DNA from: Candidatus Iainarchaeum sp.
Lineage (GTDB): Archaea; Iainarchaeota; Iainarchaeia; JAGGVJ01
Length of the DNA: 23,787 nucleotides
Assembly: GCA_021158055.1 (NCBI GenBank)
Contig: JAGGVJ010000009.1
Span: 1 to 23,787, forward strand
Direction of reading: 5' to 3'
Shown here in pieces: positions 11,617 to 23,787 of the stretch. Made by a program: the position numbers and the translations under genes. Each line of letters starts with the position of its first letter. Positions within the stretch are counted from its first letter, which is position 1. Under the pieces are notes generated by a model, which saw only the letters and a list, made by a program, of their open reading frames with translations, was not told the origin of the DNA and ran no database searches.

Positions 11617-11687
11617 ACCCGAGGGAGAGATTCGAACTCCCATACACGGGTTTGCAGCCCGTTACATAGCCATTCTGTCACCTCGGG
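11617..11687 (-). tRNA. tRNA-Cys: tRNA-Cys (GCA), CCA not encoded
   Basis: Minus strand reads CCCGAGG TG ACAG AATGGCT ATGT A ACGGG CTGCAAA CCCGT GTAT GGGAG TTCGAAT CTCTC CCTCGGG T: full cloverleaf with U discriminator. Confidence 0.93.
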
Positions 11688-11744
11688 ACAATGAGTTTGT
11701 GATTGTAATTCCAATAGCTCTTGAATATAATATGTGTCTGGGAT

Positions 11745-12755
11745 TTAAAAAAGATTTGCAATGGATGGTTGTTGTTTTTTTGATTTTTTTACGCCGCCAG
11801 TTTTTTCCTTTTGCAATACTTTTTTAATTAGTTTATTTATGTTGGTATTTTTAACAGATTTAAGTTCTTTTGAGCCAAATAAGCGGAAATAATCTTCTCT
11901 TAAGCCTAAGCACAGGTGATTTAGTTTGCATTCTTTGCACGCGATTGATTTTACGTAATTGTTTTTTGATGAAACGGCATTTTTAAATGATTTTTTTTCT
12001 GTTATTATCCGGTCTTTTTTTTGTGAGATTATGTCCCGAAGATTTTGTGAATATTCTTCAAAACCAGTGATAAAACAAAGAGGCATTCCACATTGAGATA
12101 TAATGAAATTAATTTTGTTTTTTTGACACATTTTAAGGGTTTTTTTTACGCTGTTTTCTACTTGTTGTAAGCGAGGCATTATTTCTATGTTTTTTTCAAC
12201 ATTTTTGTTTAGGCCTACAAAACCAATGTCAAATCTGTTTATTTTTGAAAATTTTTGATTAATCCAAAGTATTGTTTTAGAAAGTTCAGAGTAGTTTAGG
12301 GTGTTGATTACAATGCTAATATTTACAGTTATGTTTGAATTAATCAAATGCTCTATTCCTTCAACTGTCTTGTAAAACCCCCCGTTTAGTTGGGTTATCT
12401 TGTCTGATATTTCTGCTTTATGTGAGTGAAGAGAAACAAGTGCAAAATCAAGACCAGAGCTTTTTAAGTCACATGCAATTTTTTTTGTAATTTCTGTTGC
12501 GTTTGTTTGAAGAATTGTATGACATTTATTTTGTTTGCAAAATGAGATTAATTGAGGTAAATCATTGCGTAGAGTGGGTTCTCCACCGGTAAAAATAATT
12601 GTTTGTGTGGAGTTATCGCTTTTTGATTGTAATTCAATATTAATTTTTTCCAGCACTGCCTTTGTTGAAAGCCAATAATTGGAGTCAAACGAAGAACTGC
12701 AAAAAAGACATTTTTCATTGCAGTGTGTATTCAGTAATATTGTTGAAGAGGACAT
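11745..12755 (-). CDS. Radical SAM protein, HxsC-like, with C-terminal Cys cluster
   Basis: CNEKCLFC (CxxxCxxC), TGGEPT, QTNA, VSLHS, GMPLC, CKECKLNHLCLG; visibly more AT-rich than both neighbours. Confidence 0.92.
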   Translation of the reverse strand: MSSSTILLNTHCNEKCLFCSSSFDSNYWLSTKAVLEKINIELQSKSDNSTQTIIFTGGEPTLRNDLPQLISFCKQNKCHTILQTNATEITKKIACDLKSSGLDFALVSLHSHKAEISDKITQLNGGFYKTVEGIEHLINSNITVNISIVINTLNYSELSKTILWINQKFSKINRFDIGFVGLNKNVEKNIEIMPRLQQVENSVKKTLKMCQKNKINFIISQCGMPLCFITGFEEYSQNLRDIISQKKDRIITEKKSFKNAVSSKNNYVKSIACKECKLNHLCLGLREDYFRLFGSKELKSVKNTNINKLIKKVLQKEKTGGVKKSKKQQPSIANLF

Positions 12756-12931
12756 GTTATTTTCTTACCTTTTTTCCATTGTGCAAATATCTTGAAAGTT
12801 TTGAATAATCTTTTTAGTAAAGTAATAATGGGGTTGGTGTTTATTAATATTTGAGGTGTAGCCAGTTTGTTTTGAGGGATAGCTATAGAAAAGTGAGTGG
12901 TTTGAAAAAAGAAAGAATGATTAAATAACTC

Positions 12932-12975
12932 AAAAAGAAAAAAAAAAACGCGGGTTCATTTATCTGCCCGCGTTT
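12932..12975 (-). terminator. Hairpin plus long U-tract terminator after the DUF4139 gene
   Basis: AAACGCGGG (12946-12954) pairs with CCCGCGTTT (12967-12975), followed on the minus strand by a long T run. Confidence 0.8.
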
Positions 12976-13001
12976 ATGGTTGGTTTGTTTTGATTGGCTG
13001 C

Positions 13002-14552
13002 TCAGTAGTAGTCAATGTATTCCACGGTGTAAGTGATTTTTTTCTCTCCGTCTGCCGGCACGTTTACCTTGAACTCGATTGTGTTTGAGTCAATCTTTTC
13101 GTACGGGTCGGTTTTGGATGTTATGGTCCAGTTTTTCCATCCGTACAGGTGTTCCGGCACAGTCACTTCCACGTTTGTTTCCTTGTGGTTTTTAAGGGTT
13201 ATCTCGAAAGTGAACCTGACTACCGAGCGGCTGATTTCAGTCCTGTCGGTCTGCTTTCGCTCTCCCACTATGTCAAACGCGTTTCCTATGAAAAGCTCGA
13301 TTTCCTCGTCTTTTGGAGTGTGGTCAATCAGGTCTTCTCCCACAAACTGCAGTTGCCCTTGGGAGTCTTCCTTGTACACCCTTACTTTTCCTTTCGGCAA
13401 CGGCATTCCAAGCCCTTGTTCTTCTGAGTTTTTCAGGTTTATTATGGTTCGCACTTTTGTTCCGAACCTTGACCCGTCGTACACGAATTCCTTGTCTGCG
13501 GAAACGTCACTTGAGCTCAAAAGGGAAATTTGTTTTGTCTGGTTGTTTTTTATGTCAGTGTTTCTTCCAAGCGAATACATGTGGTACTCGAACAAGGATT
13601 CTTCTTCAAACTGCTCCGGAGAGTATGCGGCCCCTGCCATTGATTTTTCATACATTACATTGTAGTCAAGGTAGCGCGGCGTGTCATACACGCGGTTTAC
13701 ATCTCCTGCGACAAGCTTGAGCTTTGAGTTCGGGTAAGTGGTTCCGGAAGCGTTTTTCACGGTCACCCACCCTTTCAGGTCAAGCGAATCGTCATTTTCC
13801 GACAGTTTTGCAACGTAGTCCGCGTTCCAGGTCATTCCCGTCGTCAAGTAAGAGGTTTGAGTGGATCGTTCGCCTGCGTTGTCAGTGTAAATTTGCCACA
13901 CAAGAGTTGGTTTTGTCAAAAGCCCGTCTGCAAGGGTTGGGAAAGAAATTTTTTGCACTGATGAAAGCGACACGACTCCTTGAAGCGTTTCAAGAAGGAT
14001 TCCGTCTGAGTAGCTCAAGAGCTTTCCTGTGTATTCCTCTGATCCCCCGTCTGATTTGTTCACGCTTACGGTGATTTCTTTTTCAAGGAATTTTTCAAGA
14101 AGCTTGTTTTTGCTTACTATGTCATATTCGTAGTTTTGTTCAACCACGAAAGTGCTCGGGTATTTTGTGTCAGTGAACATGACGCTTGTGGCGTCGATTC
14201 CTGATGCCACGTCTTTGAATTCCACTTTGTTGAGGCCTTTTGCAAGGTCAATTGTCCGGTTTTCCTTGACAAGTGCAAGGTTGTCGTTGTAGATTGTGAG
14301 TTCAGTCCCTTGTTTTGAAGAAACTTCCGATTCCCCTGCAAAAAGCGTCACTGCTTGAGGGGCTTTTTCCGAAGACACTATTCTTGCGTATTCACCTATG
14401 TTGAAGTGCGGTTCTGAAGATGTGTCTTTTTGGTTTGCCTGAGTGTTTGAGTTTTGTAAAAGCAAATCCACGCCTGTCGGGACAAGCGTTATCAACATGG
14501 CGCTGAATACAATCAGAACGGCTGTTGTTGCAATTAATGTGTTTTTTTCCAT
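13002..14552 (-). CDS. DUF4139 (with DUF4140-like N-terminus) protein with N-terminal membrane anchor or signal
   Basis: LTIYNDNLALVKE, SYLTTGMTWNADY, LKLVAGDVNR, LFEYHMY, GLGMPLPKGKVRVY, FVGEDLIDHTPKDE; GAGGTGG RBS. Confidence 0.92.
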   Translation of the reverse strand: MEKNTLIATTAVLIVFSAMLITLVPTGVDLLLQNSNTQANQKDTSSEPHFNIGEYARIVSSEKAPQAVTLFAGESEVSSKQGTELTIYNDNLALVKENRTIDLAKGLNKVEFKDVASGIDATSVMFTDTKYPSTFVVEQNYEYDIVSKNKLLEKFLEKEITVSVNKSDGGSEEYTGKLLSYSDGILLETLQGVVSLSSVQKISFPTLADGLLTKPTLVWQIYTDNAGERSTQTSYLTTGMTWNADYVAKLSENDDSLDLKGWVTVKNASGTTYPNSKLKLVAGDVNRVYDTPRYLDYNVMYEKSMAGAAYSPEQFEEESLFEYHMYSLGRNTDIKNNQTKQISLLSSSDVSADKEFVYDGSRFGTKVRTIINLKNSEEQGLGMPLPKGKVRVYKEDSQGQLQFVGEDLIDHTPKDEEIELFIGNAFDIVGERKQTDRTEISRSVVRFTFEITLKNHKETNVEVTVPEHLYGWKNWTITSKTDPYEKIDSNTIEFKVNVPADGEKKITYTVEYIDYY

Positions 14553-14738
14553 TTTTCCACCTCGCTGTTTTTGTTAAAATGTGTGTTTGGTTACAGGGTT
14601 GTTACTAACAATAGGAAGTGGTTTTTATTAAATTAACTAAATGGTTGGCTGGCAAACCTAAAGAGTTGGTTTGCATTGGCAATAATTGTTTCTGATGTAA
14701 TCTGTTTTTCAATTGCAGTGTTTTTAGTGTAATAAAAT

Positions 14739-16640
14739 TCATGGTGGCTGGGGTTTTGTGATGGTGTTGTCTGAGTAGTCGGTTTCAATCACGACTCTTC
14801 CCAGATACCCCAAGACATCAGATACGTCTGGATTTGCTTCAACGTTTAAATTGAACCCGGTGCCGAAGTCAATCCAGTAAATTGTATCTGTGGTGGTTTC
14901 CCCGGGCATGTTCCCTCCTCTTGTTCCCGGAACGTCAATTGTCTGGGTTCCGAGCAGCTTGAAGTCAATGGGGGCAGGGGTCGCATTATAGGGCTCTTCG
15001 CTGTTAATTTTAAAAGTGACAAGTATGTTTTTTGCATCGGCAGTGTAGTCTGCATCTACACTTGATACGTTGTTTTCTATTTTTGCTGCCAGTTCACATA
15101 TTTTTAGCAACAGACCCGTGCACGTTACTGAAATGTTGGCGGTTGAAGGAGCTGCAGGGTCAAACAGCCGTAGATTGGGTTTTGATTTTACTGTGATTAT
15201 TGTTTCCTGCCCGTATTCAAATAAGCCCTTGGTTCTGAGGTTGCTTTGCTCAAAGTTTATTTGGTTGTTAACTGCAGGATTTGTACTGAAATCAGGGGAG
15301 TAAACATATGAATAGTGTAAACTGTTTGGATCACTTGTTGAGGGTATGGCTTGAGGGCTTACTCCATCATGCCCGTCTAAGTCAGCGTGTTCTCCACCCA
15401 CTGGTTCTGCAACAGTTGTTTGGCCTTCGTGTCCTGGTACCGGGCCGGTGTTGCCTGCCGTGTCAATTGCGTCAATCCAGACCCATAATTCCTTTTGGCC
15501 AAATGAGTTATCATGTAAGTTTGTTGTGTCCCAGTCAACTGAAATTTGAACGGTGCTGTCTTTGTCTGCCAGATAAGGTATTCTAGTCCTGTCAATCAAA
15601 CATGGTGGTTCAATTCCGGCATCGCATCTTCCGGTATTGTCATTTTTTGGAGGCGCGCTGCAGGGTTGGGTTTTGTCTGGGCATGGGTCACCCAGATAGA
15701 ATTCAACGTAAGTGCTTTCCCGAATGGCATCCACATTTGTTCCTCCTGTAGCCAGATTGCTGTAGTCCATTGAGTTGTTTAGGTTTAGATTGAGTGTTAA
15801 TATATCCTCGCGGGTGATGTATTCAGTGTCAATTGCCGGTTTTCCGTGTTTTGACATTTTTAAGGTTGCAGTGGTCGTGCCTATTCCTGAAGGATAGCAA
15901 AAGTATGTGACAAATCTTTCAGGTGTTTCCGAATTAGTAGGTGTGTTGTTTTCAAAATTGCCGAGTGAACCAGATGTGTAATATTCGGTTCCAGAGCCTA
16001 TATTTGCGTAAGTATAATATTCTCTTGAAGTAGCGTTGTCTACATAAGGATTTGTATAATAAGAAGTTGTGCACTCGTTAGAACAGCCAGGGGTAGATGC
16101 AATGTATGTGGATTTGTCGTGTTTTGAGCCGGTGCTGTGATTAAATTCAATGATTGCTGTGTATTGTCCATAGTACGTGCAATCAAAAAACTCCTGGAAA
16201 ATGCACTCGCGTTCATTATCTGTTCCGGTTGTGTTGCAGCTGGTTGCGTTCACGGTGCTTATTGAGTTTCCGTCTGAGAGATGGGTTATTTCCATTGCTT
16301 TTTGGTTTCCTGTGGCACAGGGCGGCAGGGAACCGTCATAGCAAGGTGGTGGTGGGAGCAGGTAAGCGGGAGCAGTGCAGGGGGATGTGCTGCCATCAGA
16401 ACATATCGAATTGCTATAGGTGACTGGGTCAGGGTAATAATAGTGGACTTTTGCGCTGGTGACTAAGCAGTCGGAACAATAGTAATAACCTGACGAAGTG
16501 CTTTCTTCGTCTTCTGAATCGCAGACATTGTCATTGTAACCGCCACCGCATGATTGTACTTCCGTTAAGTTGATTGTGATTATTAAAATAACAAAAGTTA
16601 TAAGAATTGCTTTAATTGTTTCAAAATGGTTATTTGGCAT
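14739..16640 (-). CDS. Exported Cys/Thr/Pro/Asn-rich surface protein (633 aa)
   Basis: N-terminal hydrophobic signal; CGGG...VC...E...CSDC repeat-like unit; recurring C-x-DG-S-x-x-PC motifs; beta-rich remainder; TTTAATA box about 24 nt upstream. Confidence 0.85.
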   Translation of the reverse strand: MPNNHFETIKAILITFVILIITINLTEVQSCGGGYNDNVCDSEDEESTSSGYYYCSDCLVTSAKVHYYYPDPVTYSNSICSDGSTSPCTAPAYLLPPPPCYDGSLPPCATGNQKAMEITHLSDGNSISTVNATSCNTTGTDNERECIFQEFFDCTYYGQYTAIIEFNHSTGSKHDKSTYIASTPGCSNECTTSYYTNPYVDNATSREYYTYANIGSGTEYYTSGSLGNFENNTPTNSETPERFVTYFCYPSGIGTTTATLKMSKHGKPAIDTEYITREDILTLNLNLNNSMDYSNLATGGTNVDAIRESTYVEFYLGDPCPDKTQPCSAPPKNDNTGRCDAGIEPPCLIDRTRIPYLADKDSTVQISVDWDTTNLHDNSFGQKELWVWIDAIDTAGNTGPVPGHEGQTTVAEPVGGEHADLDGHDGVSPQAIPSTSDPNSLHYSYVYSPDFSTNPAVNNQINFEQSNLRTKGLFEYGQETIITVKSKPNLRLFDPAAPSTANISVTCTGLLLKICELAAKIENNVSSVDADYTADAKNILVTFKINSEEPYNATPAPIDFKLLGTQTIDVPGTRGGNMPGETTTDTIYWIDFGTGFNLNVEANPDVSDVLGYLGRVVIETDYSDNTITKPQPP

Positions 16641-16764
16641 AGTTAAAGAAGAATGACTTTGCCGTATTAAATCTTTTCTTTTTTAGTTATTGTTTTGTTA
16701 GGTGGTTGTTATATTTGACTACGAAGCCAAATTATAAAACTGAGATATGCTCTTTTGAAAGGGT

Positions 16765-17622
16765 ATGGGTATAATTGCTGATTGTTCCAGGGATTTGTTG
16801 AGTAGTTTCAACAGAAACAAACAAAATCTGCAGGATATTTTCGTGGAAAATATTTCTTTTGAATTTTTATATACAATGATTGGGCTTTCTGATGGTTCGC
16901 AGGGGATTGCACTTAATTACAATTATGCTGATCCATCTGGAACATCCGGAACAAAGTTTATGGGGTGTGATTGTGAATCTGTTTTGAAGAAAAATGCCTT
17001 TGGTCTGACTGAATTGTCAGCAAAAGTAGCTACAATGAGTGCTCTTTCCCAGCGGTTTTTTAATAAGAGGGAGATGGGGAAGATAGATGTTGATTTTCAG
17101 AAAGATAAATTTATGCTGGATTCTATTGTCAGGGATAATGAAACGGTTTCAATAGTTGGTTGGGGCGGATTGCTGGATGCTGCCGGCATGTCAAACGCAC
17201 GGAAAGTCAATGTTGTTGAGCTTCAGTACAATCGGTTGACATGTAAAAGGTTTGATGGTGCCTGTGAAAAATTGGGGCGCGTTTTCAATAAGCAGATTTC
17301 TTGTTTTGGCACTGATAAAATGGGCGTCCTTTTGGAGTCGGATGTGATATGCATTACAGCATCTGCTCTATGCAACAACACGATGGAGGATATTCTTTCT
17401 TATTGCAGTAATGCAAGGGAAGTCATAGTTCACGGGCCCAGTGGAAGTATATTTCCCAGTGCATTTTTTAACAGTGGCGTTACAGGTGTTTTGACATATC
17501 TTGTAAATGTTGATTTATTTAGTCTTAGCAAGAAAACGCCGGATATTGCAAGAGAACCAAATAAATATCTGGAGGGGGTTTATCTCAAAAAAAGCAAAAA
17601 TTTCAAAATGGTTGAGGGATAA
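16765..17622 (+). CDS. DUF364 / Rossmann-like domain protein (putative metal chelation)
   Basis: VSIVG, VNVVEL, DVICITASALCNNTMEDIL, HGPSGSIFP...GV match the DUF364 pattern; TTATAAAA box about 25 nt upstream. Confidence 0.85.
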   Translation: MGIIADCSRDLLSSFNRNKQNLQDIFVENISFEFLYTMIGLSDGSQGIALNYNYADPSGTSGTKFMGCDCESVLKKNAFGLTELSAKVATMSALSQRFFNKREMGKIDVDFQKDKFMLDSIVRDNETVSIVGWGGLLDAAGMSNARKVNVVELQYNRLTCKRFDGACEKLGRVFNKQISCFGTDKMGVLLESDVICITASALCNNTMEDILSYCSNAREVIVHGPSGSIFPSAFFNSGVTGVLTYLVNVDLFSLSKKTPDIAREPNKYLEGVYLKKSKNFKMVEG

Positions 17623-17642
17623 CTGAAAGTACCAATCAAAAT

Positions 17643-18086
17643 TTATTTGGGCGGACGCCATGGTTTGGTGATTCCGTTCGGATCATCAAGATAGCTTTTG
17701 GATTCTTCTTCTATTTCTTTGCAGATTTCTGTACTTGCGGGTCTGGTGCTGTCTTGGTTATTGAGTGCATTTGACATTGTCAGCGCAAGTGATGTGAGTG
17801 ATTCTCTTAGCGCTTGATTTCTAATTGTTTTTTCTACAAAAACAGAATACTCAATTAGTTTATTGTTAAAGGTTTCACCGACATCTTTTGATATTTCTTT
17901 GTCTTCTTTTTGCCTGATGCTGACAAGAATTTCATTTTCAACATCTCCGTCCAGCATTACGAAATAATTATTAACGAAGTCATTTGCTGCAAGAGTTATC
18001 ACTGGCAGTGGGTATATTGAAGGATCAATAGAGACTAGAATATGTCTTTTTGATTCATCTATTCTGAAATTGTTCATTTTTTCCAT
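17643..18086 (-). CDS. hxsD: HxsD-like protein (His-Xaa-Ser system accessory)
   Basis: VSIDPSIYPLPVITLAA...YFVMLDG and ETFNNKLIEY...NQALRE...AL follow the HxsD pattern; C-terminal DDPNGITKPW; AGAGGA RBS. Confidence 0.7.
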   Translation of the reverse strand: MEKMNNFRIDESKRHILVSIDPSIYPLPVITLAANDFVNNYFVMLDGDVENEILVSIRQKEDKEISKDVGETFNNKLIEYSVFVEKTIRNQALRESLTSLALTMSNALNNQDSTRPASTEICKEIEEESKSYLDDPNGITKPWRPPK

Positions 18087-18186
18087 GCAATCCTCTTACA
18101 GATAACTTCAATAAAATGCGTCTATTTTTCTACGGTTTTTTGCATTTATAAATGTTTGTGGATGTAGCATATGTATTTTCGTTATT

Positions 18187-19266
18187 TCAGTATCTGTTGG
18201 AATAGTCCTCTTCGCATCCTTTTTGAATGTCTGTTTGGTCAATCATTTTGCATATTGTGATGTCTTTTTGCCTTATGGCCCCACCTGTGAAGCAATCCCA
18301 TTTTATTTTATCGATTGTTAAGCTTTCGCATAGTGTCGGATTGACCCGACTATATAATCTGGATAAGCATATCTCTTTTTTGTGGGAAGTTGACATTCTG
18401 TCACAAAGAGATTCATCGTTTATACGCCCGGAAACAAGTTCAATTATGCAATCGTCTTTTAAATTTTGATCTGATATGTAGTTGCATAAATCAGCATTGT
18501 ATTTGCGTTTGGCAAGGGTTTGGTAGCAGTTATCTTTTATGCCTTGGTCGTTTATTGAGTCACAGTATTGAGTCATATCCGATTGGTTGTCTTTGTTTGT
18601 TGAATCAGTATTCGAAAATAAAAACCGTGCAACCGCAGCATAACATGATGATGCGACTGATTGGTCGTTGATGAGGGCGCAGAAATTTTTGTCCTGTCTG
18701 TCCAGACCAAGATGGTAATTACACTTGTCTTTTAGGTTTTTGTCAGACACCGCGTTGCAGCTACCTGCATTTCCGGAAATGACTGAATAGTAATAAATGC
18801 AATTGTCTCTTTCATCACCAAGCGAATCGCATACTTCCGGGTTATTTTGCGAAACTGCATGAGTTACCGCACATTCCATGTCTGAAGGCGCAGGAATTGT
18901 TTCAGCGGAGCACCGGTTTATTCCATGATAATTGTCAAGAGAGTGTAAGCAATTGTTTCTAATTGTTGGTTCGCTTTTGATTTTCAGGCAGTTTGAACGA
19001 TTGTTTGTCACTTCGGCAGATAGTAAGTAACAAAAGCCTTTGTATCTTGAACTCTTTGCGTTTTCAACAATAATTGAGTCACAGTGTTTTGATGGCTCTG
19101 GGCTTTCAAGAGCCAGGGCCAGCCAGTTAAAATCAAGATTTCCGTTTTCGGTTTTCCAGCTTTCATTTTTTTCAGAAAAATTGTTTTCGCTGGAAATGCA
19201 TCCAATAAAGATTGCAATTGATAAAATGCTGATAAATACTGTTCCCTTAATTTTTGCATTGAACAT
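18187..19266 (-). CDS. Lipoprotein-like protein with 11 Cys-pair helical repeats
   Basis: Signal peptide ending FIGC; repeated C-x2-I-x-D-x3-K-D-x-C units such as CDSINDQGIKDNC and CNYISDQNLKDDC. Confidence 0.88.
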   Translation of the reverse strand: MFNAKIKGTVFISILSIAIFIGCISSENNFSEKNESWKTENGNLDFNWLALALESPEPSKHCDSIIVENAKSSRYKGFCYLLSAEVTNNRSNCLKIKSEPTIRNNCLHSLDNYHGINRCSAETIPAPSDMECAVTHAVSQNNPEVCDSLGDERDNCIYYYSVISGNAGSCNAVSDKNLKDKCNYHLGLDRQDKNFCALINDQSVASSCYAAVARFLFSNTDSTNKDNQSDMTQYCDSINDQGIKDNCYQTLAKRKYNADLCNYISDQNLKDDCIIELVSGRINDESLCDRMSTSHKKEICLSRLYSRVNPTLCESLTIDKIKWDCFTGGAIRQKDITICKMIDQTDIQKGCEEDYSNRY

Positions 19267-19489
19267 AATAAACGTTATTGAAGTTCACAATAAATAACTT
19301 TTGGTTGGTGGCCGGTTTTTGTTTTGCTTGCAATAGCCTCAGTTTGATACGTGGGATTAAAAACATATGGCGTAACTATCTAATGGTGGTAAAAATTAAG
19401 CGGGAGAATGCATGTGCAGTAGAGCATGGAAAAATAAATTATAAAATCCAACTATCTGATTATAAATTGATAAAAAGAGCAGATATACT

Positions 19490-20455
19490 ATGGTAAATAG
19501 TGTTGACCTTAATATCGGCACAATGTGCAACAATAATTGCCGGTTTTGTGTAGTTGATCACAGCAGGAATCCAACACATGATTGTTTTGAAGATATAGAA
19601 AAAGAACTTGAAGCATTCAGAGAAAAGGGCGTAGAATCAGTGGCTTTCCTTGGTGGTGAAGCTACAATTCGCAGAGATATCATTGAAATGATTTCGCTTG
19701 CGAAAAAACTTGGTTACGCTAAAATCCGGATTGTGAGCAATGGGAGGATGTATTGCTATCCTGATTTTTTGGAAAAAATTATCAAAGCAGGGGTGAACAG
19801 GTTTTCTGTTTCAATACATGCTCACAATGCGTCACTTGGGGATTACCTGTCAAGATCCAAAGGCAGTTTCACGCAGACAACAACAGGGATAAAAAATATA
19901 TGCAAAATGGGTTTTTCGTTAGACACAAATACCGTGATAAACAAATTAAATTACAAGCACCTTCCTGAAATTGTATTATTCTTAAATAATCTGGGCGTAA
20001 ACAACATGCATTTTTCAGTCATAAATCCGATGGGAAATGCAATGACTAATTTTGATGAGATGGTGCCCACGCTGACTGAAATTTCACCTTATATAAAAAA
20101 ATCACTGAAAATCTGTGACAAGAATAACATTTATTTAACCATTGATTCTCTTCCCTTTTGCATACTGCCGGAGTGCAACAGATACAAAAGCGAACTTTAT
20201 GATATTTTAACGCACGTTAGTTTTTCAAAAGGGAATGAAAGAGATCGATTTTATTGGCAGGAACGCAAAAAAAACAAACTAAAAACAAAACCAAAAAAAT
20301 GTTGTTCATGCAGGTATTTTGGGGTTTGTGAGGGAATTTGGAAAGGTTATGCCAAAAAATTTGGGTTTAAAGAAATACTCCCGATAAATGGGGTAGAAAT
20401 ACACAATCTCGATCAAATGAAAAGAATTCAGGGACAAGGATTAAAAGACATATGA
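19490..20455 (+). CDS. Radical SAM protein, HxsC-like
   Basis: CNNNCRFC, LGGEAT, VSNGR, VSIHA, SLPFC, KKCCSCRYFGVCEG; TTATAAA box about 23 nt before the ATG. Confidence 0.93.
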   Translation: MVNSVDLNIGTMCNNNCRFCVVDHSRNPTHDCFEDIEKELEAFREKGVESVAFLGGEATIRRDIIEMISLAKKLGYAKIRIVSNGRMYCYPDFLEKIIKAGVNRFSVSIHAHNASLGDYLSRSKGSFTQTTTGIKNICKMGFSLDTNTVINKLNYKHLPEIVLFLNNLGVNNMHFSVINPMGNAMTNFDEMVPTLTEISPYIKKSLKICDKNNIYLTIDSLPFCILPECNRYKSELYDILTHVSFSKGNERDRFYWQERKKNKLKTKPKKCCSCRYFGVCEGIWKGYAKKFGFKEILPINGVEIHNLDQMKRIQGQGLKDI

Positions 20456-20544
20456 ATTCTGAATGGTTTAATTTACAAATGAAAAGCCACAGTTATAGGA
20501 TATGGTGTCAGATTCTGAAATATCACAGCGCATTGGGAAAGTAA
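20452..20544 (+). CDS. Possible 30-aa peptide MNSEWFNLQMKSHSYRIWCQILKYHSALGK
   Basis: ATGA overlap with the radical SAM stop; ends 4 nt before the next ATG; too short for the supplied ORF track; may be chance. Confidence 0.3.
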   Translation: MNSEWFNLQMKSHSYRIWCQILKYHSALGK

Positions 20545-20548
20545 TATT

Positions 20549-23044
20549 ATGGTTATTGAAAGTTCTGATGACAGGAACACATTTTTTTTTGACCTTTCGT
20601 TAGTTGATTATAAATGCATTAGCAAAACCAGGTTAAAATATTTTTTCAAGGAAGCGGTGGAAAGATATAAGAGAATTGTGTTTGAGAAAATAGAACCGGT
20701 TGAACACAAGTTCTTTTCTGAAATTATGAAAGATGCGAAAGATGCTGGATTTGAAGAAGTAATAATTACCACAAGTGGGAAAATCCCCCTTGAATCTTCT
20801 TTTTTTTTGAACTACAAATCATTTGGTTTAACATCAATAGCATTTTTTGTTGATAATAGTTTTTGCGAAGCGACTAAGAAGAACATGCTTGTGACAAGTT
20901 CTAACATTGAAAAGCAGGGGTTGTCCTGTTATTCTGTGGAAGTTTGTTTATCCCCCTCCAATTATAAAATGTGTTTAGAGACCTGTAAGTTTGCTGTGAA
21001 TCAACTCAATGCAAAGACAATCTGCTTTTCCCTGGATTTTCCTTTTGTTTGCGGCAGTAGTGAGAAAACATTTTTGTCAGAATCTGTAAAAACACAGTTT
21101 GGTCTGGCTGTTGACTGGTTGAGAAAAAAAGGAATTGATATCCAGACCAAAGGAATTCAGATAGCAGATTTGGAGGGGGGATTTGAAGAATTTATTGAAT
21201 CTTTCGGAGTTACTTGCAGCAGGATCTATTCAAGATCACCGGCGTTCCGTTCATATGGATTTACGACTCCTCTTTGTTTTGGATTGGATTGCAATTCGTG
21301 TGGTTGCAAGTCAATCTGTATTGAAATAAGCTGCATAAATAAATCTCTTCAGGAGCGTGCCGGTTTGGACACAGTGATGATTGATCTGGGAAATTCGTGC
21401 AATAACACATTAAAAACTTTTTCAAAAGTAAGGGATGAATTAATAATGATGAAAAAAGGAGGTTTTTCATCAGTTGTCTTCAGTGGGATTGAACCTGTTA
21501 ATTCTCCTTATTTTTGCGATTTGGTTTCCTTTTCACGCGAATTGGGTTTCAAAGAAGTGAGTGTGGCATGTGGAGGGTGGCATTTTTCAGACAAGTCATT
21601 TTGTCAGGCAGCAGAAAAAGCAGGACTCAAAAAAGTTATTATAAATGTTTTTGCGGGGGAACCGGAAACTTATTGCAGGATAGCCGGTTCACAATCCTCG
21701 GTTTCTGATTTTGAGAGGTGGCAAATGGGAATTGAGAATGTTGTGAATGCCGGTTTTGAAACAGAGTTTGTTGTTAATATCATGAAGAAAAATTTTTTTA
21801 GTCTGCCTAGTATTTCGGAATTTTTAAAGCAATTTAAATCAAAAATTATTTTTAAGTATGTTAATCCTATTTATGGCGTTAAAGATGATAATTCATTAAA
21901 AAAGGAAGATATTTTGAGGTTCAAAGAGCTTGAGCCTTATCTGGTCAAAGCGGTTTCTGGGCTTGAGTCAGAATTTACCCTGCGGGATTTTCCTTTCTGT
22001 GCGGTATCTCATATCAGTGGATTTAGTGAAGTTATTGAGTCAGATTTAAAAATCAAGGTTGAATCAAACTATATTGAGGATGTGTTTCATCTTAGGCGTG
22101 GTTTGATGGTCCCTGAATTTTTTGAACATATTCGTGACATTGTAAAGAAATCTTTTTTTGATGAAAGTCCCAAGTTGAGTTTTCCGTTTAGGGTTGATCC
22201 GCTGAAATTCGCATCTTTTTATAAATATCACGGGAAAACAAAATCAGTTTTGTGCAATGATTGTGTGCATTATCCATATTGCGATGGAATTTTTGAAACA
22301 CATGCCCGAGCAGGCGGGTTTGCTGAATTGACCTGCATTCATTCAGGAGCAGATGGGAAAAAACAAGGGGATAAATGCATTTCAAATCAGCTTGAAAGGA
22401 TGAAAAAGAACAGGAAAGAAGCAGTAGAAGTGCTTAAAACAAACGTTGAATTTACTGAACGGATATGTGAATATCAAAAGGAAAAAGATTATCTGATTAA
22501 TAATCCCCTGCCAAAAGATTTAGTCATGAGGAGGTTATCCGGACTGGCAAAAATAGTTGTGCCAAAGATCATTTGTAATGCAAGGGATTTTCTCAGACTT
22601 TACTATGGCTCAAACAGAAGGGTCGGAATAGAAATAAAGGATGACCGTCAAAGGATGAAACAATTGGAACTTCTTCTGGAGGAAGTTGATTGTGCAGAAT
22701 CCCAGCAAATTTATCTTGAGAATAATTTTTCAGATTTGAAAGATTTTTTGGGTTACATGAAAAAAGCAGTACTCTTGAGGGAAAGATTGACTTCAGCTAT
22801 TCACTTGAATATATTTTTGCTGGATATTCTTACAAGAGACGTTGAAGGCAACACCACAGCCGAACAACGCAAATGTGTTTTCAATGCATTTGAGAGTTTA
22901 AGCGAAGAAGGCTCAAAAAAGGCGCTTGATGAATTGGATTCACTTTGGTTTGCGTTTGAGAGCCAGTCAAAGTTTTTCTTTAAAACCAAAAAAGGATTTA
23001 TTTTTTCTAAATTCCCGGTTTTTCATGAAACAAAATCACTTTAA
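20549..23044 (+). CDS. 831-aa protein with two degenerate radical SAM-like domains and a helical C-terminal domain
   Basis: Second domain has IDLGNSCNN (CxxC missing), FSGIEP, DFPFC and CNDCVHYPYCDG; first domain has EEVIITTSG and PLCFGLDCNSCGCKSIC with no CxxxCxxC. Confidence 0.8.
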   Translation: MVIESSDDRNTFFFDLSLVDYKCISKTRLKYFFKEAVERYKRIVFEKIEPVEHKFFSEIMKDAKDAGFEEVIITTSGKIPLESSFFLNYKSFGLTSIAFFVDNSFCEATKKNMLVTSSNIEKQGLSCYSVEVCLSPSNYKMCLETCKFAVNQLNAKTICFSLDFPFVCGSSEKTFLSESVKTQFGLAVDWLRKKGIDIQTKGIQIADLEGGFEEFIESFGVTCSRIYSRSPAFRSYGFTTPLCFGLDCNSCGCKSICIEISCINKSLQERAGLDTVMIDLGNSCNNTLKTFSKVRDELIMMKKGGFSSVVFSGIEPVNSPYFCDLVSFSRELGFKEVSVACGGWHFSDKSFCQAAEKAGLKKVIINVFAGEPETYCRIAGSQSSVSDFERWQMGIENVVNAGFETEFVVNIMKKNFFSLPSISEFLKQFKSKIIFKYVNPIYGVKDDNSLKKEDILRFKELEPYLVKAVSGLESEFTLRDFPFCAVSHISGFSEVIESDLKIKVESNYIEDVFHLRRGLMVPEFFEHIRDIVKKSFFDESPKLSFPFRVDPLKFASFYKYHGKTKSVLCNDCVHYPYCDGIFETHARAGGFAELTCIHSGADGKKQGDKCISNQLERMKKNRKEAVEVLKTNVEFTERICEYQKEKDYLINNPLPKDLVMRRLSGLAKIVVPKIICNARDFLRLYYGSNRRVGIEIKDDRQRMKQLELLLEEVDCAESQQIYLENNFSDLKDFLGYMKKAVLLRERLTSAIHLNIFLLDILTRDVEGNTTAEQRKCVFNAFESLSEEGSKKALDELDSLWFAFESQSKFFFKTKKGFIFSKFPVFHETKSL

Positions 23045-23787
23045 ATAGGATTAGTTTTTGTTAAGATCCATGTTTTGAAAGCAAGAAAAGTAATAAAATA
23101 TCTGCCACATTTGTTTTTTATAAAGCTATTTTCAATACTTAAAAGATGTTTGTTAATTGTTTTTAAGGGGATATTCAAAGTGTTAATAATATCTTTTTTT
23201 GAGAGACCGTCGTGAGTGGCAATTTCAGTCATGATTTTCAAGCATATGTTATTTTCTTTCTGCGTGGCGGCATTTATGTTTATTAGTTTTTGGAAATAAA
23301 TAGTGAAAATTGAGTTTTTTGAATATATTTCTTTTTCACAAAAGATTAAAAAAGAATTGTGATTAATGGGTTTTTCTGTTGAATTTATTTGAATCAAATA
23401 TTTTTCCAGGAGAAATTTGGCAATTAAAGGAAATCCATGAGAGTATTCAAATAAGATGTCAGTTATTTTTTTTATTTCACGGGTGGTTAGATTGTTTTTT
23501 GCAGATATTCCTAAAAAAAGCATTGGGAATAACTCAAGAATCTTCTCCGTAAATATTCTCATTTGGTGTTTCTTGAATGCTTTGATTTCAATTAGTTTTA
23601 TTCTTTCAATTTGTTTGCACAATTTTTTTGTTTTCTGCAGTTTTGATTTTTTGTTACAGGTACTACAAAAGATGAAAGAAACATTTTCTTGCTGCAAAAA
23701 AGCATTGATGAGTTTTTTTGAGTTGAAAGTCAATTCTTTTTTTTTGGAAAAAAAATGAAATTCATCTAAAATTATTATTGTTTTTTC
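23041..23787 (-). CDS. Archaeal AAA/STAND-like ATPase with C-terminal winged helix (5'-truncated at window edge)
   Basis: The frame stays open beyond TTG 23733 to the edge and reads EKTIIILDEFH (Walker B); SHGFPLIAK (GxP motif); HTH-like LSKKDIINTLNIPLKTINKHL then RYFI...FKTWI. Confidence 0.82.
   Translation of the reverse strand, partial: EKTIIILDEFHFFSKKKELTFNSKKLINAFLQQENVSFIFCSTCNKKSKLQKTKKLCKQIERIKLIEIKAFKKHQMRIFTEKILELFPMLFLGISAKNNLTTREIKKITDILFEYSHGFPLIAKFLLEKYLIQINSTEKPINHNSFLIFCEKEIYSKNSIFTIYFQKLININAATQKENNICLKIMTEIATHDGLSKKDIINTLNIPLKTINKHLLSIENSFIKNKCGRYFITFLAFKTWILTKTNPI

Follow-up and report, generated by a model that had tools for sequence, protein, structure and literature searches.

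A His-Xaa-Ser-like locus of a hydrothermal-vent archaeon as the probable arm of an enlarged protein-maturation cluster

Hxs-like genes of the window

The stretch of DNA considered here (hereafter the window) comprises 23,787 nucleotides (nt) and is the entire contig JAGGVJ010000009.1 (C29 below) of Candidatus Iainarchaeum sp., an archaeon represented by a hydrothermal-vent metagenome bin (GCA_021158055.1) with a 1.15-Mb genome in 45 contigs, 94.9% complete. Its right-hand half carries genes related to those of the His-Xaa-Ser (HXS) system, which consists of the His-x-Ser repeat protein HxsA, the radical S-adenosylmethionine (SAM) enzymes HxsB and HxsC, and the small protein HxsD. A preliminary description, made from the letters of the window alone, had read this block as a rearranged HXS-like locus without HxsB or a precursor. 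The work reported here makes it likely that the region from 11.7 to 23.8 kb is instead one arm of an enlarged archaeal (DPANN) HXS protein-maturation cluster, and not a stand-alone system lacking HxsB and HxsA. The window's share in this cluster, as judged from sequence, would be the conserved HxsD, two active HxsC-like enzymes and a fully dead tandem protein (Table 1).

Protein matches were weighed against the NCBIfam cut-offs for HxsB (TIGR03978, 370 bits), HxsC (TIGR03977, 267.9), HxsC4 (NF038332, 500), HxsD (TIGR03976, 50), HxsA (TIGR03979, 121.65), HxsA3 (NF038309, 65), HxsA4 (NF038313, 55) and HxsD_rel (NF038315, 41), and against the Pfam cut-offs for Radical_SAM (PF04055, 29.5 bits), DUF364 (PF04016, 23) and Peptidase A24 (PF01478, 26.5). 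The comparison set comprised 215 genomes of the phylum including the organism's own, the other 214 belonging to the same class and none to the same order.

Table 1. Features of the window (C29) and of the Hxs-like regions on contigs C28 and C5 of the same genome
Contig	Position	Strand	Feature	Remarks
C29	2-2923	+	HsdR, type I restriction R subunit	TIGR00348 550 bits; open at contig start
C29	2920-3651	+	YgjP-like metallopeptidase	PF01863 190 bits; 4-nt overlap with the HsdR gene
C29	5583-5658	+	tRNA-Gly(GCC)	left of tRNA-Cys
C29	8922-10088	-	Orc1/Cdc6 replication initiator	TIGR02928 312 bits
C29	11616-11687	-	tRNA-Cys(GCA)	ARAGORN; Rfam tRNA 57.5 bits
C29	11745-12755	-	HxsC-like radical SAM enzyme, 336 aa	PF04055 72 bits; top NCBIfam match HxsC TIGR03977, 90.1 bits
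C29	13002-14552	-	DUF4139 exported protein, 516 aa, 0 Cys	PF13598 39.1 bits
C29	14739-16640	-	Cys-rich exported protein, 633 aa, 20 Cys	no family match (Pfam, NCBIfam)
C29	16765-17622	+	DUF364 protein, 285 aa	PF04016 59.8 bits (cut-off passed)
C29	17643-18086	-	HxsD, 147 aa	TIGR03976 32.5 bits
C29	18187-19266	-	Cys-repeat lipoprotein-like exported protein, 359 aa, 23 Cys	next gene upstream of HxsD; diverges from the HxsC4-like gene
C29	19490-20455	+	HxsC4-like radical SAM enzyme, 321 aa	PF04055 89.8 bits; HxsC4 NF038332 181.1 bits; HxsC 105.3 bits
C29	20549-23044	+	putatively dead tandem HxsC-like protein, 831 aa	two HxsC-like domains by alignment
C29	23041-23787	-	P-loop ATPase, C-terminal part	runs off contig; begins at Walker B-like IIILDEFH (motif by reading)
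C28	46236		HxsC-like gene	
C28	47195-48052		HxsC-like gene	closest in the genome to true HxsC, 193-194 bits
C28	48167-49306		Peptidase_A24 membrane protein	PF01478 33 bits (cut-off passed)
C28	49825-50697		HxsC-like gene	
C28	50787		HxsC-like gene	
C28	51733		HxsC-like gene	
C28	52697		HxsD2, divergent HxsD-like gene	
C28			HxsD_rel gene	56.4 bits (cut-off passed)
C28	53509-54861		HxsB	435 bits (genome search), 426.5 as protein; cut-off passed
C28	54927-55376		HxsA, 150-aa open reading frame	runs off contig end; 9 H-x-S motifs, most in one C-terminal tandem run
C5			radical SAM/SPASM gene, 667 aa	
C5	2231		HxsC-like gene, 337 aa	
C5	3208-5502		tandem HxsC-like protein, 764 aa	
C5			ATPase, N-terminal part	ends contig

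Checks of open reading frames (ORFs), Pfam and NCBIfam recovered the HxsC-like genes, the HxsD-like gene, the DUF364 gene and the two Cys-rich exported proteins where the preliminary description had put them; its gene list left out the DUF4139 gene that lies among them. The tRNA-Cys gene forms the left border of the block, and the guanine-plus-cytosine (GC) content drops there from 0.425 in an AP-endonuclease gene to 0.303 in the adjoining radical SAM gene. The description of the block as mostly AT-rich holds for its Hxs-like genes (GC 0.30-0.39, against a genome mean of 0.42 and a 5th percentile of 0.346 for 1-kb windows), but not for the DUF4139 gene (0.45) or the gene for the 633-aa protein (0.44). 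Scans of 11-23.8 kb for repeats and small ORFs found no notable repeated element and no His-x-Ser or leader-bearing small ORF, and no His-Xaa-Ser repeat ORF was found anywhere within the window. PADLOC returned only generic viperin-like radical SAM matches.

The two single-domain radical SAM proteins, of 336 and 321 aa, both exceed the Radical_SAM cut-off with an intact Cx3Cx2C motif, and in an alignment of the genome's HxsC-like domains they keep all of Cx3Cx2C, GGE[PA]T, P-[LF]-C and Cx2Cx5C (GGEPT and PLC in the 336-aa enzyme, which scores 73.8 bits with HxsC4). Both look active by these motifs. In a tree of HxsC-like domains, obtained by a quick IQ-TREE search and supported by the Shimodaira-Hasegawa-like approximate likelihood ratio test (SH-aLRT) only, the 336-aa enzyme clusters with C5:2231, C28:50787 and in-cluster genes of three relatives (G092, G084, G089; SH-aLRT 100). 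The 321-aa enzyme pairs with C28:49825-50697 (SH-aLRT 100), and with 77% identity it appears to be a recent duplicate of that gene. Its structure model (predicted local distance difference test, pLDDT, 84.8) was matched by Foldseek to the radical SAM cores of GDGT-MAS, SkfB, BlsE and viperin (E 1e-10 to 7e-7), and a profile comparison with solved sequences likewise covered only residues ~10-200, the core (E 3e-27 to 6e-13). The C-terminal region with P-[LF]-C and Cx2Cx5C found no counterpart, and no HxsC structure was present, among the solved structures compared.

The window's HxsD has homologues in 26 of the 215 genomes (25 besides its own), and every one of these is among the 29 genomes that are HxsB-positive. 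They align over the full length, including the C-terminal DP-x-GI-x-x-PW motif, and match the window protein at E-values down to 8e-22, and the ortholog in G096 reaches 50.1 bits with TIGR03976, just above the cut-off. For the second copy in the archaeon's own genome, on C28, the E-value is only 6e-4. Since the homologues in HxsB-bearing genomes match the window protein far better than the C28 copy does, the window holds the conserved HxsD of the system, orthologous to the HxsD that accompanies HxsB in related archaea. The HxsD model (pLDDT 81.7) consists of two beta hairpins, one short helix and one long helix; it had no match in the PDB at E<=0.001, the best weak rows being Rpb11/RpoL-like and DCoH-like. 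A role for HxsD as a PqqD-like leader-binding element found no support in this PDB fold search.

The 831-aa protein has no Pfam match, and neither of its domains contains Cx3Cx2C or GGEP, so that, unlike the two single-domain enzymes, it does not qualify as a radical SAM protein by score and motif. What it does retain are Cx2Cx5C tails at residues 248 and 569, and weak radical SAM matches confined to residues 286-429 (HxsC4, 35.1 bits). The preliminary description had counted four related domains in the window with P-[LF]-C and Cx2Cx5C, and these were recovered as two intact and two degenerate copies, but the P-L-C of domain 1 in the 831-aa protein sits in the tail, beside Cx2Cx5C, whereas the other domains have their P-[LF]-C at a different position. 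Residues 600-831 form a tail outside both HxsC-like domains, and an Atlas search with this tail gave nothing.

The protein is a paralogue of the 764-aa protein on C5 (27% identity over residues 34-600), and the second domains of the two pair in the tree (SH-aLRT 98). A word-index protein search with the 831-aa query found only itself, and a metagenome scan gave 315 pattern matches of which none was confirmed, the records of its own genome possibly lying outside that collection. HMMER against 1.84 billion representatives gave 839 matches at E<=0.001, with only the protein itself and its 764-aa paralogue at E<=1e-30, and neither the word-index search nor this one yielded a full-length relative. 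Many of the 839 measure 600-1,400 aa and contain several HxsC-like domains, and the nine best foreign matches (P0004-P0012, metagenomic, 610-1,318 aa) each keep two to four Cx3Cx2C motifs. In several of these nine, the Cx2Cx5C tails exceed the catalytic motifs by one, which points to a dead middle domain. With one catalytic motif kept in the 764-aa protein and none in the 831-aa protein, the latter is read as a catalytically dead derivative of the tandem HxsC family, which may, to judge from its retained Cys residues, still bind auxiliary clusters.

The core genes on contigs C28 and C5

HxsB and HxsA, absent from the window as the preliminary description had correctly observed, are nevertheless present in the genome, at the end of contig C28. 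The genome-wide search with Hxs models that had been proposed as a check thus recovered HxsB clearly, but missed HxsA: TIGR03979 gave no match at E<=10 across the whole genome, and HxsA was recognised by reading the sequence. It scores 38.2 bits with HxsA4 and 31.8 bits with HxsA3, both below cut-off, and its layout comprises a leader, a hydrophobic membrane segment, Cys-rich stretches and the His-x-Ser repeats. The genes HxsD2, HxsD_rel, HxsB and HxsA follow one another in this order on C28, with the five HxsC-like genes of that contig placed on both strands. The kinship with the HXS system that the preliminary description had proposed is therefore borne out, both by the HxsC, HxsC4 and HxsD matches and by HxsB and HxsA in the same genome, and the "missing" core reflects contig edges.

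The small contig C5 (5.9 kb) adds a radical SAM/SPASM gene, a further single-domain HxsC-like gene and the 764-aa tandem protein, in which the first HxsC-like domain is intact and the second dead. The genome gave nine HxsC-like matches. Taken over the three contigs, the cluster counts nine active HxsC-like domains, three dead ones, three HxsD-type small proteins and one A24 peptidase, and each of the nine HxsC-like domains probably holds one auxiliary Fe-S site. Intact Cx3Cx2C motifs occur in 11 proteins across C28, C5 and the window, so the view that radical SAM enzymes are a heavy investment for so small a genome stands.

Joining the contigs

C28 ends with the same 11 nt with which C5 begins, and no overlap among 7,920 ordered end pairs is longer once the assembler's own overlaps of 16-127 nt are set aside. 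Across this join, HxsA gains no further residue and is followed by two stop codons, and in four relatives (G040, G014, G018 and G086) a 612-651-aa homologue of the SPASM gene on C5 comes next after HxsA, just as the join would have it. On this sequence evidence, the C28-to-C5 join is well supported.

The second join probably runs through a split ATPase gene. The ATPase ORF that ends C5 (its first 147 residues) has matches to the beginnings of AAA_22, ATPase_2 and TniB only, and the window ends within the complementary C-terminal part. Both fragments stop on codon boundaries, both are extremely AT-rich (GC 0.286 on C5 and 0.261 in the window), and their neighbours, the 764-aa gene on C5 and the 831-aa gene in the window, are paralogues. 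It is because of these complementary halves, their matching AT content and their paralogous flanks that C5 is taken to adjoin the right end of the window. If both joins hold, the order is C28(+), C5(+), window(-), the cluster measures ~27 kb, and HxsA and HxsB lie ~6 kb beyond base 23787. The preliminary description had itself named HxsB and a precursor just outside the window as the finding that would overturn its reading, and this is essentially what emerged; both genes seemed to be lacking because the assembly breaks off at a repeat and again at an AT-rich gene.

Distribution among related archaea

HxsB-like genes (E<=1e-60) were found in 29 of the 215 genomes, 13 of them above cut-off, and mostly in families f10 (11 of 13 genomes) and f22 (15 of 23); the HxsC cut-off was passed by none of the 215. 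When HxsC-like matches were counted at E<=1e-20 among the best 10 candidates of each genome, the archaeon's own genome had nine and those of f10 ranged from one to at least 10. The loci come in two forms, a simple one in f22 and f23 (giant protein, A24, HxsD, HxsD_rel, HxsB, HxsA and one HxsC-like gene) and a complex one in f10 with 5-10 HxsC-like genes and a SPASM gene. A24 homologues are present in the HxsB loci of 12 of 13 fetched relatives, and the leader ahead of the hydrophobic segment of HxsA is conserved in 11 archaeal sequences. Relatives also pass the HxsD_rel model, and the HxsA of one of them passes HxsA4 (58.2 against 55 bits).

A scan with an HxsD profile, taking one genome per species, yielded 35 loci, several of them from genomes already among the fetched HxsB loci: 11 in Iainarchaeum, seven in Aenigmatarchaeota, five in Woesearchaeota, eight in other archaea, three in "Methanosarcinales" and one in Falkowbacteria. 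HxsB is present at 29 of these, A24 at 25, at least one HxsC-like gene at 25, HxsA or a His-x-Ser-rich ORF at 20, a SPASM gene at 14, and a Cys-rich protein (at least 300 aa and at least 20 Cys) at 16, all of which are counts over many close kin and hence not independent.

Two further observations concern the architecture of such loci. In G092, contig C2 (locus L038), two genes at 11627-13978 and 15802-17850 encode HxsC4-like domains fused to N-terminal extensions of ~465 and ~355 aa, one of which holds further Cys motifs. Large exported Cys-rich proteins adjoin HxsD in six f10 loci (L030, L032, L034, L041, L043 and L044), and an N-terminal module that follows their signal peptide is conserved, as seen in four sequences.

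Other genes of the window

The protein with the DUF4139 domain has homologues in 49 of the 215 genomes, at 26-59% identity (50-59% in 34 of the 48 foreign genomes), including families without Hxs genes. It is mostly single-copy in those 48 genomes, where its gene often adjoins one for a ~590-610-aa protein with 10-16 Cys, and it is a well-conserved surface or exported protein. In 14 fetched loci, its neighbourhood is a different and conserved one, with an Hxs-like neighbour, a radical SAM gene, in G008 only; a conserved pair of DUF4139 and radical SAM genes, seen in one of the 14, was accordingly rejected. The gene is judged to be an embedded core gene that is not part of the Hxs system. A search with the DUF364 protein as query found it in none of the 214 other genomes, and it occurs at none of the 35 HxsD loci; it is judged a lineage-specific addition, not a conserved partner.

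The two Cys-rich exported proteins differ in their company. The 633-aa protein has no relatives in the 214 other genomes, and its link to the Hxs system is positional only. The 359-aa protein is built of 11 two-Cys repeats with a regular Cys spacing of 12-14 residues, and its FIGC motif can be read as lipobox-like. Four paralogues are encoded in its own genome (C42:34724-35668, C39:26778-27503, C8:8588-9163 and C19:14060-14701), away from the Hxs-like genes of C28, C5 and C29. Weak relatives lie within the Hxs locus of G018 and just upstream of HxsB in G087, and 359-aa-like genes occur at two of the 35 HxsD loci. A word-index protein search with this protein found only itself, and the Atlas gave only sub-threshold DPANN hypothetical proteins (0.86-0.87). 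Neither Cys-rich protein carries an HxsA-type conserved leader. A role of the 359-aa protein as an accessory substrate is speculative, and within the reading of an enlarged HXS cluster, the DUF4139, DUF364 and 633-aa proteins are bystanders.

At the opposite end of the contig from the Hxs-like block, the HsdR and YgjP-like genes form a defence gene pair. Farther right, to the left of the block, stands the Orc1/Cdc6 gene, close to which a replication origin may lie.

Interpretation and alternatives

By analogy with the HXS of E. coli, HxsD would pair with HxsC-type enzymes, and these, together with HxsB, would install radical-mediated modifications on HxsA in the cytoplasm. Because the A24 gene and the HxsA leader are both conserved, the leader could then be removed by the A24 peptidase, and the matured His-rich protein would be displayed outside the membrane. 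The several HxsC paralogues would modify different sites, and our guess is that their number reflects site or residue specialisation on a longer, repeat- and Cys-rich protein. The dead 831-aa protein would serve as a scaffold without catalytic activity, or would hold the substrate. By analogy with the bacterial system, it is plausible that the archaeal cluster keeps virus DNA from entering the cell.

Several points weigh against reading the window as an arm of such a cluster. The window's HxsD falls below the curated TIGR03976 cut-off (32.5 against 50 bits), and its two HxsC-like enzymes fall below those for HxsC (90.1 and 105.3 against 267.9) and HxsC4 (181.1 against 500). The gene order is unlike the canonical D-B-C-A, the conserved HxsD of the window sits apart from HxsB on C28, and a core gene, DUF4139, lies inside the arm. 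The join of C5 to the window has no nucleotide overlap. In Logan contigs, the two vent-metagenome runs of one study that hold the window end stop at ~23666 without a bridge; their depth falls after 23271, over the AT-rich ATPase gene, to ~3.5 and 2-5 from 11 and 14.8 upstream, which may reflect low-GC sequencing bias or strain variation. The C-terminal ATPase half has matches in two of the 215 genomes (its own and one weak match), with no full-length relative against which the join might be checked, and the contigs of a metagenome bin could belong to different strains. The binding of HxsD to HxsC, all of the chemistry, the export and the antiviral role are things that we infer only, by analogy. 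Archaea of this kind are not known to have peptidoglycan. The anchoring described for the bacterial effector (PMC13128918) should for that reason not carry over.

Two alternatives turn on the Cys-rich neighbours, whose position also lends weak support to the earlier suggestion that the locus modifies a different protein. In the first, which we regard as unlikely, HxsD, the HxsC4-like enzyme and the dead scaffold form a separate, rewired module that matures the 359-aa and/or 633-aa proteins and not HxsA. In its favour, the 359-aa gene immediately precedes HxsD and diverges from the HxsC4-like gene, the Hxs clusters of G018 and G087 contain small exported proteins with Cys repeats, and large Cys-rich proteins flank A24 or HxsD at 16 of the 35 loci. 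Many of these loci come from related genomes, however, so that the adjacency may be inherited; the 633-aa protein is without relatives in the 214 other genomes, and the 359-aa family has five members, the other four of which are scattered in the archaeon's own genome, with relatives at only two of the 35 loci. Furthermore, both proteins lack the HxsA leader, and orthologues of the window's HxsD always occur in HxsB-bearing genomes. A related and similarly improbable idea is that the arm is a substrate-switching sub-module, in which HxsD, the duplicated HxsC4-like enzyme and the dead holder redirect HXS chemistry to lipoproteins of the 359-aa type; were this true, HXS-type machinery would mature a second, unrecognised class of archaeal surface proteins.

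It is doubtful that the arm arose by duplication from part of the main cluster and is now decaying, with little function left. Such a history would fit with the loss of both catalytic clusters from the 831-aa protein, with the 77% identity of the 321-aa enzyme to its C28 counterpart, and with an arm that is AT-rich, rearranged and broken up by unrelated genes. Yet no ORF is disrupted, the two single-domain enzymes have retained every motif common to the active paralogues, and among the HxsD-type genes of the genome the window's copy is the best conserved; a dead middle domain, moreover, is common in tandem HxsC-like proteins that otherwise keep two to four intact motifs. Finally, the preliminary description had also suggested the handling of a metal cofactor. 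That DUF364 and the Fe-S enzymes act on a metal or small-molecule cofactor, and that the locus does not mature a protein, is very improbable. Pfam does describe this family as "putative heavy-metal chelation", and its sole characterised enzyme cyclises a methylated SAM, in a family that co-occurs with radical SAM methylases (PMC12930334). But the gene was found in none of the 214 other genomes and at none of the 35 HxsD loci, and the remaining genes are clearly related to Hxs genes, which are accompanied by a peptide substrate.

The reading as one arm of an enlarged HXS cluster is thus preferred. Its chief outcome is to correct the earlier picture: assembly breaks account for the lack of HxsB and HxsA, and the locus counts as a variant of a system already known and not as a novel type. 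It would mean that an archaeon with a 1.15-Mb genome devotes 11 seemingly active radical SAM enzymes, three dead domains and a predicted dedicated leader peptidase to one His-x-Ser protein. If the analogy holds, these symbiotic archaea, poor in cell wall, make a surface protein that is heavily modified and may act against viruses. The natural set of HxsC paralogues could also serve as a panel for working out the function of HxsC enzymes.

Comparison with known systems

A full-text literature search on His-Xaa-Ser and HxsA-D found only one study that treats the system, as paper and preprint (Li et al., Nat Commun 2026, PMC13128918). Canonical HXS consists of HxsD-HxsB-HxsC-HxsA (TIGR03976-03979) in E. 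coli, Klebsiella and other Pseudomonadota, and it was only in 2026 that the four genes were shown to keep phage DNA out of the cell. HxsD is bound by HxsC in E. coli, where HxsA is N-terminally processed, carries a +8 Da modification and blocks the entry of phage DNA, with the chemistry of the radical SAM step still unsolved. The paper places 99.7% of HXS systems in Pseudomonadota and does not mention the word archaea (PMC13128918).

Like the canonical system, the present one has an HxsB radical SAM/SPASM enzyme, which passes its cut-off, together with HxsD-type small proteins, HxsC-type enzymes and a protein with His-x-Ser repeats. The N-terminal part of the substrate is removed in bacteria and predicted to be removed here. 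The present system differs in being archaeal and in having nine apparently active HxsC-like domains instead of one, none of them at the HxsC cut-off. It further includes the 667-aa SPASM enzyme, an A24-family peptidase of its own and three dead domains. A membrane segment and stretches rich in Cys set its HxsA apart, for which family searches gave no peptidoglycan-binding domain, and the genes of the system lie on both strands across three contigs.

Among solved and named relatives, the 321-aa enzyme resembles BlsE (7vob), GDGT-MAS (7tol), SkfB (6efn), viperin and MoaA in the radical SAM core only. For the dead tandem protein, the pseudo-SAM/SPASM family TIGR04347 offers a precedent by name for dead radical SAM proteins, with weak matches of 20-62 bits against a cut-off of 525. 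The closest models are those of NCBIfam's variant families: HxsC4 for the 321-aa enzyme, HxsA3 and HxsA4 for HxsA, and HxsD_rel for the ORF after HxsD. The last is passed (56.4 against 41 bits), and the 321-aa enzyme (181 against 500 with HxsC4) and HxsA (38 against 55) remain below theirs. The very names of these families show that their curators are aware of variant systems. Since the HxsC-like, HxsC4-like, HxsD and HxsA proteins are below their cut-offs and the four-gene order is not kept, the locus is filed as a variant that works like HXS, and not as its equivalog.

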